Below, piece after piece: positions 904-21,648 of a stretch of DNA of 64,000 nucleotides. The notes beneath the pieces were generated by a model. The model saw only the letters and a list, made by a program, of their open reading frames with translations. It ran no database searches and was not told the DNA's origin. This DNA is from Fistulifera solaris. Taxonomy: Eukaryota. Each line of letters opens with the position of its first letter. Positions within the stretch are counted from its first letter, which is position 1. The stretch is from the NCBI GenBank assembly GCA_030295235.1, contig AP026137.1, forward strand, positions 186,001 to 250,000. Reading direction: 5' to 3'. A program made the position numbers and the translations under genes.

Positions 904-1631
904 GCTGCAGTTCGCTTTGCGGAAGTTGAATTGCGTTCCTTTGTGGGTAAATTACAAAGCGAGAATATAGCAAGAAAACGAATACAACTGGCTGGAAATA
1001 AGGCAGTCAAACACCCCGTTACAGAAACGTCTCCCTCTATTGTGCTGCTGTATCCAAAGTGTCTCTCTTCTCTTCAAAAGAGAGGTCGTAAGGACTTTAT
1101 TAGGAGGAATGAGGGTGGACTTTTGCACCCATTCATTCGAATGGAGGGTGCACGAAAATTACATACGGACTTATTTCGGTGCGCGTTGGTGGAGTTTACT
1201 CTTGGTTCACGGTCCACCGCGACGCTGTTTCCGTTGACGTAGGTGAAATTTTGGTGAGTTCGAACGGTACTTAAGGATGTGACATGCTCGAGTCTTTAAA
1301 TACAGAACACGAAATAACGCTCCTCTTCTAAGTATTCCAATATTTAGAGGAGCCGAATTCGATAGTGACCACCATAATACCCATTGCGTCACGAGTTTTC
1401 GTGATTGTGTTGCAACCAATAAGGATTTGATTATTTGCGAGATGTTGCGATGATGATGACTATAAACTACAAGTATTCTTCGTTTATCTCTCGTAATGGT
1501 TTACTTAAGTCATTCATAGCTTTCACATACTAGCGGGAACGCAAAACTTGCCTTGTCATGAGCAGCTGACGTTTTTGACCTAACAACAAAGAAAAGCCGA
1601 AAATTTAACGAACATTCCGACTCTTTACAGG

Positions 1632-3720
1632 ATGAGTGGGTCATGGACGCATCGCGTCGCCATGATATACAGTGTTTGCTGTATTGTGTTGGGACGGTTC
1701 TTGGCGTACAAGTATCTGTATCATCACAAAGAATGTGATATGACATGGTCACAACGTCGTTTTCTCGAGTTGCCTCTCTCGACGAATGAAACTCCCTATC
1801 GTTTGTTCAAATTCACCGACGCCCGTGATCTTCGATACCGCCCATTCTTTGCACACAACAACGGTAAAGTCACCAACCTTGAGGACAATTCGTGGTGTAA
1901 CAGTCACAACCATTCGGTTCCTGTCTTATTTGTTCCGGGCCACGCGGGAGATTACCAACAAGCCCGGAGTTTGGGAGCTCATGCCGTACACATGACGGGA
2001 CGGTCCATGACCTCGAACGAATTGCAACAGGCTTTGCAGCTTTTACACAATCCGCAAGAAGCTGTGTTGGATGTTTATGCCGTGGATTTCAACGAAGAAT
2101 GGAGTGCTTTACACAGATTTTATGTCACGCGACAAGTTCGCTTTGTCGAACAAGCCATTCAGCGATTAGTAACGGCGTGCGAACACTACGAAACCATCCT
2201 CTTGGTCGGACACAGTATCGGAGGATTGGTCAGCTTGGCGGCGGCCAAAGCACAACCCACTTTGGTGAATACCATTGTCACATTGGCAACCCCGCACCAG
2301 AAACTGGTCACGTATGAGCCCCAATTGTGGCAATGGCACAAGAGTTTAGGACAGCCGCTGGGACCCGTGGATTTGGTGTTGCTTTCCGTGTCGGGTGGAT
2401 TGCGCGATGAATTGGTATCGCCCGAGACTACACGACATCGATTTATGAATGCATTTTATGGAGTTTCATTGATGGGACCCGATTTCATGGAATTGGCACG
2501 CGACGAAGGCACAATCACGACACCGTATTTAGGAATGGATCATCGAGCCATTGTTTGGTGTCACAATTTGTTGGCGCCTCTGCGAAACATGGTCGTGGTA
2601 TTGGGACAAGGCCGACGGGAAAAACGACGGGCTAGGGATATTCTAGAAACTGTTTTAAGTACTGTGCCGGAACAAGCACTTGAATTCAAAGATTCCATTT
2701 ATCGTCAATACAATCTCCTCCAAGTAAGTTGAGAAGCGCCTGTCATAAATCTCTGCCGATTACAGTTTAGTTAACTTTGTTGTGATTTTCCTTACAAAGA
2801 ACGATTTTGGGTACATTGGGGCAATAATGATTGAATTGAGCGCACTGGGGAACATTGACTTGTTGGTTTTCTTTTTCGCTTTTCTGGGAACGATTAAAAT
2901 ACAAGAATCATCTCGCGGACGAAAGCCTTCCGAATGGACGACGACAATCGTGTTGTTGGTGATCTACGTTGTGTATGCGTATTTGCGTGGAATATTTCAT
3001 TCGCTTCGGGCGCCCAATCTGCATACCATTCTGGTTGCAGCGTTATCTGCGGAAGCTCTGTATCTGTTCTTCCGGTTTATCTTGACAGTATTCATTTGCG
3101 GTCGTGCTTTTCGACGAGCAAGTCGACGTGTTTGCCACGTTGTGGCTATAGGGATCGCAATTTTGATATCCGTCTTGTCAAGTCGATTATTGAAAGTACC
3201 ACAAGAGACCCCAAATTCAATCGGACTTGGTGTTTTTCTGGTCTCCGCTACAGTTACTCTTGGATTAGCGCATCTTTCTTCTATTTCACCACAAACGAAG
3301 TCGTTACTGCAGCGCGAGGCGTCCTTTGTGGCATGGAGCATACCTGTCGTCCTCATTCTGACGTTTGCTGACCTTGTGGTACTGATTCGGTATTCGGAAT
3401 CATTGGGGGTTATTGGAAAGCTTTGCCCTTTGGTCTACGTCCGGTTCTTGATCGGCGGATCTGCTAAATCTACCTTCAACGTTGACGAATCACTACCGGT
3501 GGGGATCATTTGCGCATCGACTTATTATTTCGTCTCTGGCAATATAGACGATGCTGCCCGAATTTATGGTCTCCATCCGCTCGGGTTGTTTGTACATCTC
3601 TTAATTGTGGCCGACATTCTGCGTGTGTTACTGACCTTTAGCTTTCGTCAGCCGCTATTAATAAGCGAAGCCAAGATGGAAAGCGATCAACAATCAAATG
3701 AACATACAAAGAAAAGCTAG
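1632..3720 (+). CDS. PGAP1: PGAP1-like GPI inositol-deacylase (alpha/beta hydrolase plus multi-TM C-terminus)
   Basis: PVLFVPGHAG, AVDFNEE, GHSIGG lipase motif, TLATPH, SGGLRD, DHRAIVWC. Phase-0 intron 2724..2799 (GTAAGT...AAAG) joins ORF 1632 in frame to hydrophobic ORF 2782. Confidence 0.85.
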
Positions 3721-4146
3721 GCCCGAACTCGCGTGGATGTCATTTAGATTGGCTTTTACAACAAGGGGCTCAGGTCGCCCCTAGGGGGTCTAGCTTCTTG
3801 GAAACAGCTTCACCCAATGGACACCAGTGCTTTCACCAACAACATCTAAGTCGTCTAGAGCCTGTACTTAGTTGAAAAAATCGTGATTCCGGTTGTTAAC
3901 AAGAAAGACGAGCCGAGCCGCACATTTTTATAAGCTGTCCAGGGCACAATGCGATGACAAATTTCGCGGATTGGAAGTCGGGCTATAAGCAAGATTAAGT
4001 GTTTGTTAAATCAACGATTATAATTTTAGTCTAATAGTTGTAAGGTAAGATTAATTGCGTGACAATGAATGAGTCTGGGGCGAAGCGGTATGTCTTTCAA
4101 GCCTTATAAATTACGGGGTACGAATGTAATCAGTTGCTCTACCGCG

Positions 4147-4389
4147 CTACAGATCGTATGCTTGTACAGTTCTTCTTCCATTGGCCTCTGCTCGCCGTAT
4201 AGCAGCATCAATAAGCTCATGAACGACAATATTGAGCTCCTCAACGAAGTTGGATGCCGTTCGATGACCAGCATCCTTGAGTATTCGCCTCACTTGCGTA
4301 CCGATAACAAGCTGGTCATCTTCGCCTGCATTAGCAAACGTCATGAAAAGAGTAAAAATGAATGCAAAAAGCTGTTTGAAAAGTTGCAT
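4147..4389 (-). CDS. Prokaryote-type minimal histone-fold protein (DUF1931/face-to-face or Bd0055-like) with predicted signal peptide, 80 aa
   Basis: MQLFKQLFAFIFTLFMTFANA|GEDDQLVIGTQVRRILKDAGHRTASNFVEELNIVVHELIDAAIRRAEANGRRTVQAYDL. The last ~55 aa follow the short prokaryotic histone pattern (LVV.S.V+..I..., S.+F.E.L...V.ELI..A..RA.ANGR+TV...DL). No intron. Alternative ATG at 4344 would omit most of the signal. Confidence 0.8.
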   Translation of the reverse strand: MQLFKQLFAFIFTLFMTFANAGEDDQLVIGTQVRRILKDAGHRTASNFVEELNIVVHELIDAAIRRAEANGRRTVQAYDL

Positions 4390-5127
4390 GGATTCAATTG
4401 AAAAAGGGTGTCTTGGGAAAATGTTGACCAAAAATGAGATGTCTGTCGAGCTTTGAAATCTCGAGGTTCTCCTTGCACGCGAGCCGAGCATCATTATACC
4501 TGTATTTAGGAGATGTGATGTCGTAAAATATAATTTCTTAGAAGTTCAATCAGAAGTCTTCTACACCTTAACACTATACAGTACGTCTTGTCTAGACTTT
4601 CGCGCCAGCCTGCTCTCAGACTGGATGACGAAAACCTCGCCTCATTTCTTTACGTGATTCATTGCTGACGGAGAGGCTCATAGTAAATTTGTAGATGACG
4701 TGTGACCTGGTCAGACTTTGAAGAAAACTATAGAATTTTATTGTATAGAACTGCCCCACCGATTTCGATTTTTGTTGCTTTCTCGAAACGCGTGCGGGCG
4801 GCGTTCTCATCACGTCAACAATCATCGAATCACCCGATTTTCCGCCGAATGAATCACCACAACCTTCTTGAAGACCTTGCTAGCTTTGACACCACCCCAC
4901 TAAGACTGACAAAGCATCTGATTACAATCAATACGGAGCGAACTCTCTCTGACAAGTTATTTATTCACTCAAAGACGAATATCTGAGGAAGAAAGACTGT
5001 GAAGCATTTTTCAGCCGATTCGTTCCATTTCGACAAGAAGATTCGATTTGACTACAGTACGCTAACACAACACCGATCTCTGTATTGTCGCATCAACTAA
5101 TTTGTAAGCGCCCTTCATCGATTTGCG

Positions 5128-6540
5128 ATGAAATCAACTTATCATGGCTCGCTACATTGTATTTGCCTTCTTCTTCTCGCCACAAATGTCACGCGCTCGT
5201 TTACTCCATCCTCTCGACAATCAAATGCTCGCAAAGCACTGACATCTCATCAAGCTGTGGATATAGCTGCGGCTAGCTTGGTAGCCGGAAGCGTGGCTGG
5301 AGCTATTGGTGTTGGGGTGGCGCATCCTTTGGACACGTTGAATATCAAAACACAAGTACTTCAGGCAGCAACGTCACTTGAAAAACTGAATGCTAAGCGG
5401 AAAAACACAATTGCAGTCTTTGACGATCAGCAGGAAAGCAATACGTACTCCTATTCACAGCTAACCGGCAGCAAAACAGTCAATTCTTCAGTAGCGATCG
5501 ACCCAGTTCGTCTCAGCTCTTCGGCAACATTACAGGCAACAACTGTTTTGCCATCTTTTTCACAAAAGGTACCCCGTCAAGTGAATTTCTCGGAACATAC
5601 CGGCGTCATTGTTCAACATCGAATCGTCTATAGAGGCGAAGATGGTGGCGAGGGACCTTCTTTCGATAGAGTGGATACATGGCAGGTCATGCGACACGTG
5701 TACGAAACCGAGGGTGTTGCAGGATTCTTGGGCGGTATTCGCATCATGATGATAGGACAGGGTTTGGTGAAAGCATGTTCTTTTACCGTCAACGCTGTCG
5801 TTTTGAATTGGGAAGTGGCGCATGCTTCTGCACCAACGGATTCGCCCACGACGGCCATGTTTCTGATTGCCGCTGCCACGGCTGGTTTTGTGTCGTCCTT
5901 TATTGTGAACCCAGTCGAACGTGTCAAGGTTCTCTTGCAAGCAGCATCATCCTCCTCCAAGGCAGAGTCGGAGCTCGAATGCGTACGCAGCGTGTTAAAA
6001 TCTGAAGGATGGGCGGGCTTTCTGGGTCGCGGCTTGGGCACTACTATGCTCCGTGAAGTTCCCTCGGATGCTATTTATTTTTCAGTGTATGGACTGTTGA
6101 TGCAAGCAGTCGGTGGTGGCATTGGAGGATCCGATGAAAGTATGGTTCTGGCTCCGTGGTTAGCGTCGCTCCTCTTTGGTGCGGCTTCGGGGGTTGCGTC
6201 TTGGATTCCCGTGTACCCAGGTACGTTTTGCAATTTTTGCCTCTTGTTTAGCAAATGTTACCGAACCAACTAACGACAAACCATAGTTGATCTAGTTAAA
6301 ACTCTAGTTCAGAATACGAACGGCAATAGCGTGGCTGAAACAGGCTCCTCAACTGTGGCACGAGACACGTGGCAAGTGGTCCAAGATCTGTACGCTGCGG
6401 GAGGAGTTGGAGCGTTTTACGATGGAATCACTCCCAAACTTCTCCGCGCTGCTGTGTTTCACGCTGTCACATTCTGGGTGTATGATACCATATTGCCGAG
6501 CATAGAGTCTGCCACGTCGATTATTCATGTATCATCATAA
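5128..6540 (+). CDS. Mitochondrial carrier family (SLC25) protein with probable bipartite plastid leader
   Basis: Three PxD/ExxK signatures (PLDTLNIK, PVERVK, PVDLVK, the last across intron 6221..6286); GFLGRG..TMLRE and FYDGITPKLLR. N-terminal signal followed by TRS-F and a Ser/Arg-rich stretch. Confidence 0.85.
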
Positions 6541-8316
6541 CAAGGCTTGTAGGAAATGTAAATAAAAAAACAAGCATTCTGACTCTAGGAAATTAGGAAT
6601 AAATGTTATTAAATCCACCAGTGGAGATTGTTAATCATAGACCTTTTGGCACAATCTCGGAAACGTCACTCAACGAAGCTTTTCAAATCAGCGTATGTGC
6701 AGCTTACCAGATTGACCACGTGCTAGCTTTGTCATCCTTCCTGCTGTTTCGTTTTGTGTCTAAAAATATGGCATTTCTTAGAGGGAAGTGTAGCAATCGC
6801 GCCGAAATGTTTCTGCTTCCGTTGAAATCAAGCCTGATAATATAGGATCACGCGGAAGTCAATATCAAACTTTTAACACCAAATCAATCATCCTTTTGCC
6901 AAACAAAGGATAATTAAGGTGCTTGACAACCCTTTCTGATTTTCCAAGCTTGCTTGGGTGGAATCACCAATAAACACTTTGGGTGGGAAAATAATCATCG
7001 TATACAATCCTAAATATATTTTTCATTTCCTCACGTCCGAATAGAATTTTGACAATTGACTGAATTTTCCACTTTTTTTCCTCTTTTGTTATATTACGAT
7101 TTCAATCCGGCAATTCGCCGAGTGAGTTCTAGGACTCGATAGCTCAAGCTTTTGGTTAATACATTGATCTGTTAAACACGAGTGAGTCGTGTTGATGGGT
7201 CGCTGTCGTGCTCATTGTGACTTTGGTTGCGATCCTCTTATGATTTAAAACGCTGCTTAACCCCTTATCATTTTCTCTTGATATGAGAAATATTAGACTT
7301 TTTCTCCTCTTTTTATGGATTTACAAAGTTAACTCAGATCACAGTAAAAAACGACTATAGAGTCATATCTGAATTAAGTGTCAATCTTTCTTTAAGTGCT
7401 TTTGTGATTGAAAAGACGTTTGTACAAGATTTTACCTGAAAATGTGTGAGGCAAAGCATAAGTAGATGTGGCGTGAGCCTATATAAAACCATAAGCAACA
7501 CAATCTTAATTTGAAGACATTTTCCAAAGTTTTGACTTGTCCGAGGTTTGATGTTTACCTCATGATATCCTGCTGTGATAAAAGTAGCCGGATAACAAAC
7601 ATTTTCTTCTTTTTATAGTCAAGCTTGGCATTGTCTAAGGTTCATGTACGGCATTTAAGTGGGGCGGAGCATGCAGAAGCAACTCCACTTTTTAAGTGTT
7701 CTCATTGCGCTCCTATTGCTGAGGCACCATCGATGGAGTATACTGATAAAGGTCAACGTACGATTGAAGAATATATGGCGCCTACGACGGTCGAGTAGAA
7801 CATAGAAGTTAATATGGTAGCAAACGCCTGGATTTTTTTCGGTTCTGCATGCCCTCACGCCCCCTGAAGCTCGTTAAACAACCAACGCCGAACTGGCTGA
7901 CATCCAAACCGAGATTGAAACTCAATTGTCTCGAGACAACTCCAATTTCCGTCCCCACGATCGACATCTCCCCGACTGGTCACTCTCCGACCTTCAAAGT
8001 GCTCCCCTTCCCGACAGCCGAGCGTGGCTGCTCAACATGCATAATGAACGGTTAATGTCGGTTTTCGCAGTACCATCATTTCCCAGTTCTAACTAGTTTT
8101 CGCCCTTTTCAGTCGTTGTCTCTTTGATTCAGTGCCCCTTTTCCTTCCCTTTCCCGTCTCCCAGCTATTTCCCAGTACCCCAGCTAGCATGGCTAGCACC
8201 ACGTATCGGACCATCAATAGGATACCGATTGGTAGGCTTTCGAGTCGATATAGTAATGAGTGAACTATATAAATCTTTGAGTTATTATAATCTATAATAC
8301 CACCTATAGCATAGAT

Positions 8317-14655: not shown

Positions 14656-17600
14656 TCATTCAAAGCTTTTCTCCATATTCAAAGTGGCTTCAATGGCGGT
14701 CGCTTTACCCTCTACGGCATTGAAAAGAGCATCACCAAGTTCCAAATCACCTCTTTCTAATGCCAAGTCAGCCTTTACCACGTCTCGAAACATTTCTAAT
14801 GACCACTGAACAAGTTTATCACGAAGATAATCTTCCAAGAAAATCCAAGCACCGTGAAACAAAGGCTTGAGAAGTGCTGGCGGAACCAGGATAATACGGA
14901 CTTGCATCTTGCAGCTGGTCGTAGAATCCGGAACAAATTCAACGTTTCCGCGATTCCGTAGCCCGTCGACAGACTCCCATTGAATACCTAGGTAAGGAAC
15001 GCGCCGTACCTCAGATTTTGCCCGCCATGATAAGGAAACTCCTCTCACGTTCATTCGCCATTCAGACATTTCACCCTGATATTCTACGCTTGTAATCCAA
15101 GGGCTCCACCTGGGCTGTTGTGGCAAATCAGTAAATCGAGCATGGGCAGTTTCCGCGCTGAATGGTAGGTGCAACGAAGCGACGATGCTGATTTCTTCGT
15201 TACGATTAGAAGAGATACCAGCTCGATAGTTATCTTCTTCTTTGTGCTCTTGTTGTAGCTGCAGGGATGAATCACAGAAATCTGGTAGCACCGTCCGCAC
15301 TTCGTCTAAATTCAAACCAAAGAGAGCACGCCCTAAGGATTGGATATTCAAAAATCCGTTCGCATTGACATAAGAGGCAAAGGGAGGGGAAAGTAAATCA
15401 GCTGACAAGATGGAGTAGGTGCTCAACCCGTGAGCCAAAGTTGGTGTATTATTGGGAAGTGCATCTATTTCTCCTGCCAAGAAAGCTGCGTGTGCCAATC
15501 CAAGCCCAGATTCCATGCAAGACGAAATGACGACGGGGATCTGCAATTCTTCTCGTGCTAAAGTTGCGATTCTGGTCGTTAGCGCAAAGCCTAAAACCGC
15601 CGGCTTGAGTACGAAGCAGGCGCAACCGCGTCTTGACCTCCCTTCAGTAAAAATTGTACGTAATTTCTCACGTATCTCCTGCCAATCTCTGCGATGGACC
15701 TGGACGAGATCCCCAATACTTTCATCCAAAGCATATGGAATAGAAGTTTGCAAATAAAATCGTTCCAAAGCTTCTATCTGTTGTTCCAAAGACCAAGTCG
15801 CGTCGTTTACTTTTCGCAGGGGCTCTTCAATGTACTCCAGCCGATCCCTTGCTTGCAATTCCCAGCCTTCTATAGCAGCAGCGAATTCAAGAGCTCCCTC
15901 TTCATCCCAAGCGCGATTTGCGTCGGCTCGTATTTTCCCAAGTGTAGAACGAAAACCTTGATGAATTGCTGCTTGGTCTTGCTCTAGGCTATCATGACCG
16001 ACTTTGATTTTGAGTGATGGCCATTTCTGCGTCTGAGGACTCAATGAACTTCTAGTTTGTAAACCGTTTAACGGTAATAGTCCTTTGCTCGACGGTAGTA
16101 TTCCATTGGCATGCCAAAGCAACGAGCGCAAGGCCATTTCCAAGCCACAGCGTACACTTATGTGCCAGGACACATCAAGATATTGTTCCCAAGTGTCGAG
16201 AAGAGCGTCAATGTCTTCCATGAGTGAAACAGAGGGTACATTTAATCTAAACCACTCTTGCAAGGTTTGAATTTGAACTTGAGCTTCCTCCAAAGATTCA
16301 GCGTGAACTCCTTTTAACGGGCTCACTTCTCCTAAGCCCACGTAATTGAATACACGCAGCTCTATTATCATGCCTGTTCGATTTTGCGTCGTAGAAGTCG
16401 CTGTAGCTGATGCGCCCCATCCAAGTCCCTGATTTCGATCGTTGAGCAACGGAATTGAGAAAATTTGATAATCTAAAGAGTCCACAATCAAATGTCCCTC
16501 ATGTTGACGAGCCGTAGGGATAGGTAGTTTCTTTGATCGCTCAGTGTCAGAGGAAGTAGTCGTGATGTTCACGTCTAATGGATCCGGTGTAATTGCGTCA
16601 GGTTTTTCAACCGAGATGGTCGCGCTGTTTTGAATGGCATCACGATTCAATGTACCATTGCACGAGAGAAACTCCGCCAGATGAAGGGCGACTGTCGTCG
16701 GTGCTTCCCAAAGCAATGCGTGTCCGCTTTCGGGGATAAGTGTCGCATTAGATTGCAGCGCATACTTAGAGTCCAGCTCACCAATTAGCAAGCAGTGTCG
16801 TCGGTCAAAATAACATTCGTCGCATCGGTGATTTTCTAAACGTCCAGGTGATGCTTCAGACAAAACTTGCGCTATTGAAGCCCCTGCACGTTGCAGTATC
16901 TCCGTCCGTCTTTCCAGTATCGCACGGTAGGTATCGGGTCTTCGTTCTTTCATATTGCCCCATATGGGAGCGCTGTACCAAGATTCCAAGAACTCTCCCC
17001 ACAATGTCGCCGGGTTTGTAGCCACCAGTTGCTGGTGAAAGATTCTTTGTAATTGCTGACTGAGTTTGTCGTCTCTGTGTGCCCGACCGGTATCGGCCGA
17101 AACAGGTTCAAGATTGCTACTTATTGTCGTAACTTGCGGAATCGAGTAAAGTCGTGATAATTCCAACCCGATTCGGCCTCCCAACGAATAGCCTGCCACG
17201 GCATGTATGTCCTTTAGCTGGTAGTCTTGTGCTAAGCAATCACCAATCCATTCTGCCATAGCGGAGACTGAGTAATTGAGACCGCTTGTGGTGGAATCAA
17301 TAGATTCAATTGAGGGTTCAACCTGAGAATGCCCTGGCAAATCAATCGAAACTATATTCCAGTTGTCTCCGATGTGCACCATTAACTTTTCAACGACATC
17401 GTCCCAATCTTCCTTGCAACCCATCCACCCATGCAGCAATAAAAGCGTTCTGTTGGCTTTGTTGGAAGTATATTGCTTTAGTGGCAGTATCCTTGGCCGA
17501 GTAGTGTAATCCATCCAAGAGTGTTCATTAACATGACTTTGAATTTTCCTCGTCAAATCACGGTGCAGTTGAACATTTTCGTCCCGCGATATTACCACAG

Positions 17601-20600
17601 CTTCTACCAACGTATTCACGTTCTGCTGCTCCCATTGATTCAACAAAGCCTCATACGATGCTACTTTCTTGTATTGTACGCCCAAACCCCGAGCTGTGGC
17701 TTCCCAATCGACATGCTGTGTAGGCGTACTAAAAAATTCTTCAAACGACACATCATGTTGTGCAACCGGTAGGAAAGAAAAAATCGCCCCGCCATTGTTG
17801 TTAACGATCAATGTGGAAAGTTTAGGAGCACTCGCAAACGCGAAAGAATTCGAATCATGCAATGCACTGACATCACCAATAATTAGTTGAGTCGGTTCAT
17901 CAGCGTTCAAGGCAAAACCTTGCGCGGTGGCGATAATACCGTCGATACCACTGACGCCACGGTTGGAGCCCGTGACAGTCATAGGAACTGATGCGATGAT
18001 TTCGCCGTAAGGATACAAAAACGACTCTGCGTCTCGTATTGGCATACTATTTGACAAGAACAAAGCTTGTTGAGGACTCTGCTGTGCTAAAGCAAGTATA
18101 ATTTGCGGCTCCGTCAATCGATCGGGCGATTGTTGCAACAAAAATTCCTTCATCACTGGCGCAAGTGTCCGGCTCCATGGAACTAATGGCGTTAATGCAC
18201 TGCTAATGCTTCCCTTAGGTAGTTCGGAAGTGCGACCAACAAGCGTCTCCAGAAAGAAGGCCAAATTTGGAGTGGAAATGCTATGCGTAACAGAATATTC
18301 CGGATCCACCCGCCGCCGGGGATTCGTTTGCAAAAGCACATGCTGTGCAGTTTCTTTCAAATACGAGGTAACGGTAGTGGAGAGTAAAGGAGCGCCAACT
18401 TGTAAGATGAAATCTGGCTGTAGGGCGTCGCGAACATTTGGGCACGCTAACAGATGTTCGGCAAACCACACGACAGCATGACTGGTGAATCTTAACGATG
18501 AGGAGGTAGCCACGATTGGGAATCCTATGGTTTGGGCTAATTGATCCAGGAGCGGATATACTTCGTCTTGTTGCGACGGTGGTATTTGTCCGACGACCAA
18601 TAAACCTCGACGTGAATTTTGTAGCCACTGAACCAAGTCTGCAGCAGCAACGTCGTTGTTTTGTGCGCGAGATGAGTGGCGCTGTATCAAGGGCTGTCCG
18701 GATCCACTCCACCGTGCAAATGCGGGTCCTTGCGTGAATCGTGTGGCATTGTATCTTTCTACGGCATCTCCGTCACCACCACGTACTGGACCACCTTCAG
18801 GAGCAAGGTTCTCTCTGAATTGAACATTGATATGCACGGGCTGCTGCTGTTCGAGTGCCATGTAATGAGCGTAATTGGCATCACTGAGCGCTGCGACAAC
18901 ATTCACTTCATCAGATGGTGGCAAGACATCCCTAAACCATGCGACTTTGTCCCCAAATAACTTTACTTGATCCATGGCCTGATTAGCTGCAATGTCGCGG
19001 TGTTCATAAGGACGATCGGCGGTGAGCACAATCATAGGAGAATCATCTTGATGAGCTTCCAGGACAGCGGGCAAAGATTGGCCACGGCAGTTCCACTGCT
19101 CGTCACAACCACTGCTGGTCGCCCACTGGCCTTGCCGTAACCAACTGCTCGGAACGCCGCAGCTCGTTCATCGTGACAACTAATAACTTTGAGAAAGGGA
19201 TGTTGACGTCGTGCCCATGCCCAAGCAACTGCCAACGGTGTCGATCGTGATCCAGGGCATATGAAGACCATATCAACACCACATCGTACGAACTCCTCGA
19301 CGACTGCTGTCGCCCACGCTGTATTGATATTGGGACAGGATTGCAAAGACAAGGGCGACGAGAACCAGCTTGCAACAACCTGGAACTTGGCAACGGTTTC
19401 GGCAAACTCTTCTCGTAGCGTACTGTTCAGGACCAACCCACTCCCAGCAGTTAGCAAGAGTTCTTGCTTTGGTCGCAGCACAGCGCTCCGGATACCTACT
19501 AGCAATTGACACTCTGTAGGAGATATATAACCAATCGGACCAGCATAATAATCCCGCGAGAAAGGTTCGACGCGTCGAATATAGTCACGGGCCATGTTCA
19601 AAGGAAGTCCACATACAGCAGGTGTCGGATGCAACTGTTCCAAGAGATTTCGAATCAATGTTGATGTGTTGTTCCACACCGGCGCTTGGTATGTACGGCA
19701 TATGTGTTGAAGATGCCTTGTTCGTCGAACAAAGGTTTGACTGGTAACAAATGGTCCAATCGATGGCTGTTGCCTGGAAAGAACTTCTTCGATGTACCGT
19801 GCGGTGCACGCATTCTCGTCCAAGTCTTTAGGACTATTCACCAACTCTTGCAGCAAATCAGCGTCTTCTTGCGGATGCGAGCCGCGGGGTCGAGTTCCAG
19901 CTAGGGCTTCTGTTGTAACGGTACAATTGTGTATGCGAAAAAGCTGTTCCGGAGTACACCCCACAAAGCACGAAGAGGATCTCGTCGATGTGATGATCGT
20001 ATTGTCGTCCTTTTTGTCCCACAGAGCCATAGCAAATAAGTTTCCTGTTCCGCTTTCTTGTTTCCAGCGGTGCAGCAAATCCACAACATGGAACGGATGT
20101 TTGAATTGTAGCAGCTGTTGTCGTGCCAGTACAACCTTTTGCAGATCGGAGTATTCTCCATTTTGATTTTCTTGCTGCATGAGTGCAATGGCTTCTTCCA
20201 CACCTTGCTCATACGCATCAATCGCCAAATCTGTTTTCGATACCACGGGTGGCAGTGGTGTTGAAATGCTTCCCACATCGTCCAAGTAACGTGTCTTGAT
20301 GCTTTGTGCGATGCGAGCCGCCTCTTCACGAGTTCCAGTTGTATGCAAAGCCAAAACTGTATGCGTTGCATTCTGTCTCCATTCCAACATGGGTAGAACC
20401 CATTGTGCCATGTCTCCATCAAACGTTTGTGCTCCGTACCATCTTGCGTGCGGAGGCAATTGCCGATGGTCGTCCCACAAAGCTGATGTGTGATCGACAG
20501 CCTGTTGAATGCCCCAAGCGACGATTTCTTCGGCATCTTCGGTAGCAGTTTGTAAATAGAAAAAATGTTGTTCTGGATCAAACTGTAATTGAGACTTTAA

Positions 20601-20999
20601 CCAAGGCAGCAGTTGTAGCCGCCTCGAGAAAGTTACTTCGAGACGATAAAGAGTATCGTTCTCGGATGATGAGGACAGTACATTCAAGGCGCGCTGCATC
20701 CATTGCCATGCCTCAAACCACGATGCAACAGTCATCGTAGTTGTTGTGTGAGAAGGAAACACATATGGATACACAATGTGAAATGGTGTAGTCGTTTGTG
20801 TTTTTTGTCGTCTTGTCGTTGACGAAGAGGCTTTCGAGAGTGTCGTTTGCGAGTCGTCGTTTGTTGTTATTGTGTTTCCGACCGCTTGTCTTGTTCGTGG
20901 AGGATAAGGACGATTGATAACAAAAGCTGTTACGTGATTTGTTGTTGTGGTCGTTATTGTGTGCCACACAAGAACGCAAACGAGTTGCCAGACCCACAT
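14656..20999 (-). CDS. PHYLLO: PHYLLO multifunctional phylloquinone biosynthesis protein (MenF-MenD-MenH-MenC) with C-terminal SRPBCC/START domain
   Basis: Leader MWVWQ...VTAF; MenF (KVVLAR, EALAGT, LHPTPAVCG, YAGPIG); MenD (CPGSRSTPL, DERAAAF, SSGTAVAN, TADRP, NRGVSGIDG, NNNGGAIF); MenH (LHGWMG, DLPGH, GYSLGG); MenC (KIKVG, DANRAW, EEP, LDES, LKP). One frameshift at an A-run near 19074 joins ORFs 19032..21098 and 14656..19074. Confidence 0.93.
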
Positions 21000-21648
21000 C
21001 CTTGCAAAATTGTGCTTTGTTGAAAAAAGCGACAGGATGTAGAGTACTCCGGAGTAGGAAAAGGAGCGAAACAACCGACGAAGCAAGAAAGGGTGCAATA
21101 AAAGTTCTTCAATGGTTAATTACCCAATAGCATTGTAGAGGAAGTCATTACGGAGTAATGAAGATGTATTATTGCGATGGAATAGAAAAGGAATGATGTT
21201 TGAGTTTTTTGTTTTGCGTTGGCTCGTTCGTTTCGTCGGCGTCGCAAGTTGAAGTCCGATGCGACAGTGGTTCATGACTTCTCTTGAATCAAGATAGCTC
21301 CCGAGTAGATCGTCATCAAAGACAGGTTGTTCCGTCGCCCGTCGACCGTCGACCAAAACCCGAAGCGCGAAGCTAAATTCGAACAATGACTGCGATGACT
21401 TAACGACTATAAAGTCAAAGAGAAGGGACATGTTCTGTGACAAGTGACACTTATAAAATACTTATGACCATTTCGTTCTCTCCTACGTAGTACGTATAGT
21501 ATTTGTACGAGGAAAGAATTCCTTTTTCCTTTCGTCGCAACAAAACGAAAAGCTGCAAGCAAGAAGCAAGGCTCGATCGTCGCCTCGCCGCCTCGTCGCT
21601 CGTCGTGAACAAACACTTTAACAAGATCACTTCAGGAAAACCAATACC

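Follow-up and report, generated by a model that had tools for sequence, protein, structure and literature searches.

The reverse strand of a 64,000-nucleotide stretch of Fistulifera solaris contig AP026137.1 (the window; all positions below refer to it) carries a short open reading frame (ORF), whose predicted product, P0002, combines a hydrophobic leader with what looks like a prokaryotic histone. The locus raises several linked questions: whether the ORF is a gene of the diatom at all, to which class its histone fold belongs and where it comes from, where the protein would be sent, and what it could bind there. We consider, with moderate confidence, that it functions as a nuclear gene in a raphid pennate diatom and encodes a horizontally acquired face-to-face alpha3 histone refitted with an endoplasmic reticulum (ER) signal peptide.

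The ORF extends without interruption or introns from ATG 4389 to the TAG at 4147–4149. The first 21 of its 80 residues are MQLFKQLFAFIFTLFMTFANA; the other 59, starting with GEDDQ, open GEDDQLVIGTQV and close RRAEANGRRTVQAYDL. This is exactly the 80-residue intronless ORF with a 21-residue leader ending in A-N-A reported in the original prediction, which had been made from the letters of the window. Codon log-odds, trained on the large ORFs of the window, are 7.5 in this frame compared with at most 1.0 in the other five, and no second copy or paralogue was found in the 64-kb window.

Profiles from curated libraries match the 59-residue domain below their cut-offs (PF00808, 15.6 bits, cut-off 21.4; PF09123, 13.5 bits, cut-off 21.8; NCBIfam archaea_histone, 18.2 bits, cut-off 50). 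All five matches of a phmmer search against the PDB at E up to 10 are prokaryotic histones, namely HLp of Leptospira perolatii (9QT0, E = 2.1e-7), HBb, or Bd0055 (8CMP and 8FVX, E = 1.2e-3), HTkC (9F2C, E = 3e-3) and the Methanopyrus kandleri doublet (1F1E, E = 0.019). An AlphaFold2 model of the mature domain, based on a 35-row alignment, has a predicted local distance difference test score (pLDDT) of 95.7 and places alpha1 at mature residues 9–18, alpha2 at 27–48 and alpha3 at 56–58; it was used instead of the model of the full-length protein with a 4-row alignment, which was poor (pLDDT 60.3). Foldseek ranks 1–9 for this model are all HLp, HBb or HTkC (template modelling score, TM, 0.83–0.97; root-mean-square deviation, rmsd, 0.5–1.2 Å), whereas archaeal nucleosomal and eukaryotic histones reach TM 0.53–0.68. 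The model superposes on HLp over 56–57 columns at rmsd 0.5–0.6 Å, and on HMfA/HMfB at 2.7–3.9 Å. In the available part of Schwab et al. (2024, PMC11390915), alpha3-truncated histones are defined by an alpha3 of only 3–4 residues, and their alpha2 is shorter by about one turn than the nucleosomal one; in our model, alpha3 has three residues, with the chain ending at residue 59, and alpha2 has 22. The sequence search, the model and the structural search thus agree with the earlier view of P0002 as a tailless, short-alpha3 prokaryotic histone distinct from H2A/H2B/H3/H4 and from NF-Y/TAF folds, and no eukaryotic histone-fold family is among the best matches.

Three classes come into question for the domain: the face-to-face tetramers, the Bd0055-type dimers and the DUF1931 proteins. 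The available part of the HLp preprint (10.1101/2025.05.08.652872) describes a tetramer triad, R49/N53/R55, and an RD clamp, R55–D62, which align to R66/N70/R72 and R72–D79 of P0002; R66, N70 and R72 are invariant in all five members of its clade (see below). Bacterial dimers, as characterized in the accessible text of PMC11390915, are without the conserved dimer–dimer residues R48/N52, and HBb has S and D where P0002 has R66 and N70. With the triad kept, P0002 would hence be of the face-to-face type and not of the Bd0055 type. The original prediction had named DUF1931, face-to-face and Bd0055-like histones together; of these the face-to-face assignment stood, and the other two did not, as the DUF1931 profile (PF09123) stays below its cut-off and P0002 comprises a single fold. 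Judged from the alignment and the model, the domain is a prokaryotic face-to-face alpha3-truncated histone, not a DUF1931 pseudodimer.

Four copies modelled together were scored by ipSAE (interaction prediction score from aligned errors) against three controls, and yielded 0.89, compared with 0.03 for the best control; at least 98% of contacts are common to the runs, and the pLDDT of the partners is at least 91. The predicted dimer–dimer contacts, R65, R66, A69, N70, Q76, Y78 and D79, belong to the C-terminal alpha2/L2/alpha3 part. The calibration of the ipSAE mark was made with two copies, so that its counts are only a rough guide for four: of 30 proteins whose solved structures pair one chain with itself, 21 reach the mark, compared with none of 23 solved as single chains, the respective figures for eukaryotes being 17 of 29 and 0 of 30. 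As the HLp and HTkC tetramers have already been solved, the four-copy score may reflect memory, and it speaks for likeness rather than for binding.

A word-indexed search of 5.8 billion proteins retrieved P0002 itself and three close homologues of 80–81 residues (P0003, P0004 and P0005), and a distant relative of the same layout, P0009 (81 residues), came from an exhaustive HMMER search among 1.84 billion representatives. The fold domain is identical to that of P0002 at 56, 55, 51 and 32 of 56 positions in P0003, P0004, P0005 and P0009, respectively, and the leader with the stub is identical at 13, 12 and 13 of 24 positions and, in P0009, at 8 of 23. P0175 and P0176, the two relatives nearest to the neighbouring mitochondrial carrier without being identical to it, share only 91% and 87% identity with it, hence the histone domain is more constrained than the carrier. 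A contig of a diverged second copy of the region (see below) shows 10 differences in residues 32–62, eight of them synonymous and two conservative (D61E and V56F). These comparisons indicate that the domain is under strong purifying selection, and that the leaders drift yet stay signal-like. P0003 has the JGI label 'histone H3/H4', so a gene model exists; no published discussion of this model was found.

The five proteins form one clade (Shimodaira–Hasegawa-like approximate likelihood ratio test, SH-aLRT, 98 on 267 rows; ultrafast bootstrap, UFBoot, 97 and SH-aLRT 92 on 106 rows, once rows sharing more than 55% identity with a retained one had been removed). With E up to 1e-3, the exhaustive search yielded 180 proteins, and a profile of the five clade members scores these five at 138–167 bits and the next match at 78 bits (52 matches, E up to 1e-6). 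None of the five has MMETSP or EukProt as its source, and a metagenome scan for the clade gave 133 pattern matches, none of which was confirmed. Prokaryotic relatives are numerous: among 600 pattern matches of a scan of named genomes with an 8-row alignment, at least 365 encode relatives, the best 80 of which are 34–48% identical and come from Bdellovibrionota, Myxococcota, Brocadiaceae and other Planctomycetota, Elusimicrobiota, Acidobacteriota, DPANN and other archaea, halophilic archaea and one Rickettsiales metagenome-assembled genome (MAG). The best scores in the ESM Atlas are 0.85–0.86 (lead level 0.9), and the members of known phylum there are mostly Bdellovibrionota, Myxococcota or Uroviricota.

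This phyletic pattern fits the horizontal acquisition proposed in the original prediction, and acquisition from a prokaryote is the simplest reading of the sequences. Neither a donor nor a direction of transfer could be assigned by phylogeny, as the sister of the clade changes between the trees without support: it is P0055, P0059 and P0073 in the quick tree (71) and domain 1 of P0006 in the careful one (16/0; 28/88 for the other value obtained there). P0055, P0059 and P0073 share a Ser/Thr-Gln motif in alpha1 with the clade, a hint of kinship. A viral donor was also considered and rejected: two of 35 IMG/VR pattern matches encode relatives, with 43% and 31% identity, no closer than the prokaryotic ones.

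The ORF lies between a convergent PGAP1-like gene and a divergent mitochondrial-carrier gene (see the table below). Reads from three runs bear on this context, X1 behaving as DNA, and X2 and X3 as RNA (spliced joint, poly(A) end). Both flanking genes had been called intron-containing diatom genes. For the carrier, this holds, since the X2 and X3 contigs are spliced there, with 6218 next to 6285, and an X3 contig has a poly(A) loose end at 6570; for the PGAP1-like gene, it holds in part, a candidate GTAAGT...AG intron near 2726–2799 being read from the letters. Of the nearest named relatives of the carrier, one (91% identity) has an organism label that starts '[Fis', as in the pennate diatom genus Fistulifera, and Cylindrotheca follows with 45% and 42% identity; as these are diatom proteins, the locus is most likely a diatom one. 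The PGAP1, Mito_carr and PHYLLO-like genes of the window, together with the spliced intron and the poly(A) end, bear out the eukaryotic nuclear context described at the outset.

Could the ORF nevertheless stem from bacterial contamination or from an error of assembly, or be no more than a dead relic? Its fold family is prokaryotic, its G+C content at third codon positions (GC3) is 0.375, compared with 0.42–0.50 in the neighbours, and no RNA evidence for it was obtained: the X2 and X3 contigs listed lie only on the carrier gene, none of them on 4147–4389, and have no bearing on its expression. Against this, contigs of the independent run X1, identical to the window, cross into the gene from both intergenic flanks (3513–4172 and 4312–4724). 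A second set of X1 contigs, 90–95% identical to the window over 2500–6800 (17 of 52 pieces), suggests a diverged second haplotype or a homeologous copy of the region including the histone gene, where, as mentioned earlier, the changes are mostly synonymous. P0003 and the diverged carrier homologue P0176 are both recorded with a longest contig of 12,560 bases, which is consistent with conserved synteny, though no proof of it. Sigma-70 promoters and terminators are not above shuffled sequences in number (three promoter-like sites, 1.9 expected; no terminators), and the domain is nearly invariant among the homologues, while 11–12 of 24 positions differ in their leaders. A foreign or dead ORF is thus hardly credible, and we conclude that P0002 is a real gene, native to the diatom nuclear genome and strongly constrained.

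We counted signal-peptide features in the five clade members with a script of our own. In all five, the n-region has a charge of +1 or +2 and no acidic residues, an uncharged core of 10–16 residues follows, small residues precede the likely cut (ANA, ANA, VNA, ASA and AHG), and 2–4 acidic residues stand directly after it. The maximal 19-residue Kyte–Doolittle mean of the leaders is 1.35–1.74, which fits a signal peptide better than a membrane anchor. Thus, the leader of P0002 has the positive n-region, the core of about 7–15 residues and the small residues at −3 and −1 of a Sec-type signal peptide, and under the positive-inside rule its charge pattern fits N-in/C-out insertion. The C-terminus, YDL, is a family motif and not a K/HDEL signal. 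No convincing hydrophobic leader is present at any of the 80 top-ranking genome loci of prokaryotes (L030 was flagged only through upstream read-through), and many of these start with Lys-rich tails. All features of a cleavable ER signal are hence present, as the reading of the leader as a secretion signal had assumed, and the sequence evidence on the leader all points to the ER and the secretory pathway, the routing itself being predicted.

In diatoms, however, the route to the complex plastid also begins with an ER-type signal peptide, and P0002 could in principle reach the plastid or the periplastidial compartment by an atypical route and serve there as a nucleoid or nucleic-acid-binding protein, acting on plastid DNA. 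The window comes from a photosynthetic eukaryote, as its PHYLLO-like gene indicates, and a DNA-packaging fold would have an obvious substrate in the plastid. The diatom plastid rule (ASAFAP) calls for a region resembling a transit peptide, with Leu or an aromatic residue at +1 ahead of it. P0002 has Gly at +1 (P0009 has Lys) and not Phe, Trp, Tyr or Leu, and only the five residues GEDDQ, three of them acidic, separate the predicted cut from the fold, leaving no room for a transit-peptide-like region. The sequence thus lacks the bipartite presequence, as already noted from the missing Phe at +1, and we regard a plastid destination as highly improbable.

The signal-peptide reading depends on the start at ATG 4389. 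The description of the ORF in the original prediction is correct, except that two in-frame upstream ATGs, at 4494 and 4491, had been overlooked: the frame is open upstream of 4389 as far as the stop at 4546–4548. Together with 4389 itself, these are the only ATGs on the reverse strand within 4620–4389. Both have A at −3, whereas ATG 4389 has a weak context with T at −3. If a transcript started upstream of 4494 and the base count of the window were correct, a 115-residue precursor would be made, with the frame open from 4494 to 4147 and an Arg/Ser-rich extension (MMLGSRARRTSRFQSS...) holding five Arg in 35 residues, four of them ahead of the first acidic residue, Asp17. Such an acid-poor N-terminus would be a mitochondrial-type presequence. 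Behind it, the hydrophobic stretch would either sort the protein, or stop its transfer, at the inner membrane or in the intermembrane space, or else pass into the matrix with the rest of the protein, where mitochondrial DNA could be bound by the histone.

We consider this longer form improbable. All four homologues are recorded with a start at the Met equivalent to 4389; the codon log-odds per codon are 0.03 in the extension, compared with 0.15–0.25 in the P0002 coding sequence; a TATAA element overlaps the first upstream ATG; and each of the five clade members keeps, as its N-terminal signal, the layout of n-region, core and AxA that directly follows Met 4389. In addition, an X1 contig, otherwise identical to the window over 4312–4724, has one extra A after 4429, in the run of A at 4430–4434, which puts the upstream ATGs out of frame, in a separate 33-codon ORF ending at about 4393. 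This difference decides the frame of ATGs 4494 and 4491. The X1 contigs, otherwise identical to the window, also have one extra A after 3874, and both differences suggest that the length of a run is miscounted in either the window or the X1 data. As for an intracellular isoform from the second ATG of the ORF (4344), suggested earlier, conservation gives it no support: Met16 is replaced by I, T and I in the close homologues, and we rejected this candidate.

We return to the signal-peptide-bearing histone translated from ATG 4389, and to what it might bind. According to the available part of the HLp preprint (10.1101/2025.05.08.652872), the DNA contacts and main energy contributors of HLp include K15, K17, K21, T27, K54, T57 and R59. 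Mapped by this partial account, K17, K21, T27 and T57 are kept in P0002 as R34, K38, T44 and T74, whereas K15, K54 and R59 are changed to Q32, G71 and Q76; of the five residues by which HLp binds DNA most strongly, two are thus Gln in P0002, and all five clade members have Q32 and Q76. P0002 has additional basic residues in alpha1, L1 and L2 (R35, R43 and R73). The fold core has a net charge of +1 and an isoelectric point (pI) of 8.6, at the 25th percentile of 267 family domains (median +3), and, with the GEDD stub, the net charge of the mature protein is about −2. The idea of a cationic antimicrobial histone was set aside, as the mature protein is net acidic. From the sequence, binding of P0002 to DNA is plausible but uncertain, and it may be weakened or lost.

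These same charges and substitutions favour a further alternative, namely that the exported tetramer does not bind nucleic acids, but serves as a structural or scaffold protein for an anionic or protein partner in the endomembrane system, the wall or the mucilage, the histone fold being co-opted as in TAFs or DUF1931 proteins. Some prokaryotic histone categories are without DNA-binding residues, as far as the accessible text of Schwab et al. (2024, PMC11390915) goes. It is also generally known that the secretory pathway holds no obvious DNA. Vice versa, R34, K38, T44, R72 and T74 are kept at the HLp contact or clamp positions, and the added Arg residues and the pI of the core likewise speak against it. 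We regard such a scaffold as unlikely.

Several observations weigh against the exported, polyanion-binding histone that we prefer. Besides the GC3 value, the RNA contigs confined to the carrier gene, the T at −3 of ATG 4389, the possible 115-residue product, the substitutions at K15, K54 and R59, the two Gln among the five strongest positions, the low charge of the core, the negative charge of the mature protein and the possible loss of DNA binding, these are the following. Neither Cys nor an N-x-S/T site occurs in the mature protein. The sister group of the clade is unsupported, and the nearest rows in the trees (P0055, P0059, P0073 and P0006) come from short contigs. Small ORFs are often omitted from eukaryotic annotation, so that the narrow distribution may be partly an artefact.

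The preferred scenario would run as follows. A prokaryotic (or viral) face-to-face alpha3 histone would have been acquired by horizontal transfer, and, in the diatom lineage, the basic N-terminal tail of its prokaryotic relatives would have been replaced by an ER signal peptide and an acidic stub. Translation would start at ATG 4389; the leader would enter the ER translocon N-in/C-out and would be cut after Ala21; and the 59-residue product would form handshake dimers that in vivo pair face to face into a tetramer via R66/N70/R72. With neither a transit-peptide-like region, nor an aromatic residue at +1, nor a K/HDEL signal, it would be retained in the secretory lumen or released outside the cell. 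A basic ridge formed by R34, R35, K38, R43, R72, R73, T44 and T74 could bind a polyanion there, our first guess being extracellular DNA in diatom mucilage or biofilm, with other anionic polymers possible.

In a wider and rather doubtful version of this scenario, one pennate lineage has made a captured histone into a secreted tetramer that binds nucleic acid or another polyanion outside the cell, and the leader-bearing bacterial relatives described below (Sec-like, sub-threshold Tat-like and fusions with RNA-recognition motifs) mark a wider, hitherto undescribed, convergent class of extracytoplasmic histone-fold proteins. If this is true, the tetramer could capture or organize extracellular DNA in mucilage or biofilm, or allow DNA to be used as a phosphorus source.

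The alpha3 and face-to-face histones have been recognized only in 2023–2025, and are described as prokaryotic (and phage) proteins acting on the cell's own DNA. Schwab et al. (2024, PMC11390915) regard sequences with eukaryote-like alignments as probable contamination. No eukaryotic or signal-peptide-bearing alpha3 histone is reported in the titles, abstracts and text passages that the literature searches covered; within this scope, the literature agrees with the earlier statement that no eukaryotic secreted histone of this class has been described. P0002 would then be the first eukaryotic case of the class, and the first histone of the class sent away from any genome. For histone biologists, it offers a small tractable protein (59 residues, no Cys) for studying a DNA-wrapping tetramer in an extracytoplasmic setting; for diatom biologists, it is a candidate matrix or cell-surface component of horizontal origin. 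Even if the leader is not used, the gene shows cleanly that a prokaryotic histone can become fixed in a eukaryotic genome.

Features of the P0002 locus, in positions of the window
Feature	Positions	Strand	Description
Coding sequence of P0002	4147..4389	(−)	80 codons and TAG; co-linear with P0003, P0004, P0005 and P0009 from Met1 to Leu80
Predicted cleavable ER signal peptide	4327..4389	(−)	M1–A21: n-region with K5, uncharged core L7–A19 (13 residues), A-N-A at −3..−1
Mature alpha3-truncated face-to-face type histone-fold domain	4150..4326	(−)	59 residues, G22–L80, begins with the acidic stub GEDD
Helix alpha1	4273..4302	(−)	Residues 30–39; R34, R35 and K38 on the expected DNA-facing side (model and HLp mapping)
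Helix alpha2	4183..4248	(−)	Residues 48–69, 22 residues (model)
Loop L2 and 3-residue alpha3	4150..4194	(−)	R66–L80, RAEANGRRTVQAYDL: triad R66/N70/R72, RD clamp R72–D79, T74
Upstream extension	4390..4494	(−)	35 codons, two ATGs; most likely 5' untranslated region or promoter, not coding
TATAA element	4494..4498	(−)	Overlaps the first upstream ATG; possible core promoter, with its function suggested by the letters
PGAP1-like gene	1584..3720	(+)	Convergent neighbour; lipase domain and membrane part; Pfam PGAP1, 4.9e-37
Mitochondrial-carrier gene	4876..6587	(+)	Divergent neighbour; Pfam Mito_carr, 7e-30; GT..AG intron 6219–6284

Farther along the window, at 14659–21119 of the reverse strand, two large ORFs between them encode isochorismate synthase, MenD-type ThDP, MenC-type enolase, alpha/beta hydrolase (MenH part) and START/polyketide-cyclase-like domains. 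They resemble a phylloquinone fusion gene of the PHYLLO type to which a C-terminal domain of the lipid-binding type has been added. An ESM Atlas query with this neighbour returned plant isochorismate synthase clusters and no diatom label.

Among the relatives of P0002, many of the strongest (P0006, P0008, P0010–P0013 and other proteins of 114–130 residues) are tandem alpha3-fold doublets with two matched stretches; the P0008 cluster has 25 members, one of them named as an archaeal MAG protein. A distant Foldseek match, 9rif_D, is, by its title, a histone-fold heterodimer of the Plasmodium oocyst rupture proteins 1 and 2 (TM 0.65/0.40); eukaryotic histone folds can act outside chromatin.

Hydrophobic leaders also occur in one prokaryotic subfamily of alpha3 histone folds, the KPKEIVVVGSKVK group: in 80 metagenome loci (L081–L160), 15 of 71 ORFs were flagged as leader-bearing by the script. 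Proteins of this group include P0007, P0014, P0022, P0025, P0026, P0034, P0046 and P0089, as well as L145:4010–4462 and L151:138–614; some members are tandem doublets, and the L145 one lies among dense prokaryote-like ORFs. In P0072, P0084, P0118 and the proteins of L103, L125 (509–982), L126 and L128, an alpha3 histone fold occurs together with both a leader and an RNA-recognition motif, an odd and apparently undescribed architecture; Pfam RRM_1 is above its cut-off in all three proteins tested (24.4–54 bits, cut-off 20.7). In two members of the KPKEIVVVGSKVK group, at L081:979–1278 and L088:863–1162, the leader has an S-R-K-E-F-L motif and an Ala/Gly/Val-rich core and is twin-arginine-like. 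A twin-arginine translocation (Tat) signal was rejected for these two, as the matches are below threshold (TIGR02811, 22.3, cut-off 48.45; TIGR01409, 13.3, cut-off 16.7). The literature search found no description of exported prokaryotic histone-fold proteins, including those of the KPKEIVVVGSKVK group.

How does P0002 compare with systems already described? The closest is HLp (9QT0, 9QT1 and 9QT2), both as the best sequence match and as the best fold (TM 0.92–0.97, 35–36% identity), with the truncated alpha3, the tetramer triad and the RD clamp shared in the alignment, and the same modelled C-terminal alpha2/L2/alpha3 interface. In the accessible part of the HLp literature, however, HLp is a cytoplasmic bacterial DNA-wrapping protein with no leader, while P0002 is nuclear-encoded in a eukaryote and has a signal-like leader and an acidic stub, as well as the Gln and Gly residues at three DNA-contact positions and the lower net charge mentioned earlier. 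HBb/Bd0055 of Bdellovibrio bacteriovorus (8CMP, 8FVX and 9EZZ) resembles P0002 in its truncated alpha3, its fold (TM 0.83–0.86) and the RxT...D loop, but differs from it in the dimer–dimer residues, so that P0002 does not fit the bacterial dimers. HBb is located in the nucleoid, and in the available part of Hocher et al. (2023, PMC10627809) it has no signal peptide and is not secreted, unlike what the leader of P0002 would imply. HTkC of Thermococcus kodakarensis, in its available description a tetrameric member of the face-to-face class, is likewise similar in fold (TM 0.85–0.88), whereas it belongs to the chromatin in the archaeal cytoplasm and lacks a leader.

More distant are the DUF1931 proteins (PF09123; 1WWI of T. 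thermophilus and 1R4V of A. aeolicus), which, on the partial account available, are histone-fold relatives with two folds per chain and no DNA-binding residues, while P0002 has one fold; 9QT0 itself was named 'DUF1931 domain-containing protein' by its PDB depositors. Eukaryotic core histones, NF-Y and TAFs share with P0002 the helix–loop–helix–loop–helix fold and the RD clamp, but their rmsd to the model is 2.5–3.9 Å, and P0002, with no tail, a short alpha2, a 3-residue alpha3 and a PF00808 score below the cut-off, falls outside these families. As a working analogy only, the DNABII proteins (HU/IHF) of bacterial biofilm matrices are small dimeric nucleoid proteins found on extracellular DNA; their fold is unrelated, and they have no signal peptide.

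Finally, the metagenomic leader-bearing prokaryotic alpha3 folds (P0007, P0014, P0046 and those of L145 and L151; P0072, P0084 and P0118) resemble P0002 in combining an N-terminal hydrophobic leader with the fold. They differ from it in belonging to the KPKEIVVVGSKVK subfamily, which is apart from the diatom clade in either tree, and in lying on prokaryote-like gene-dense contigs; doublets and proteins with an RNA-recognition motif are frequent among them. Thus, given the leaders of this group, export of the alpha3 fold may have arisen more than once.

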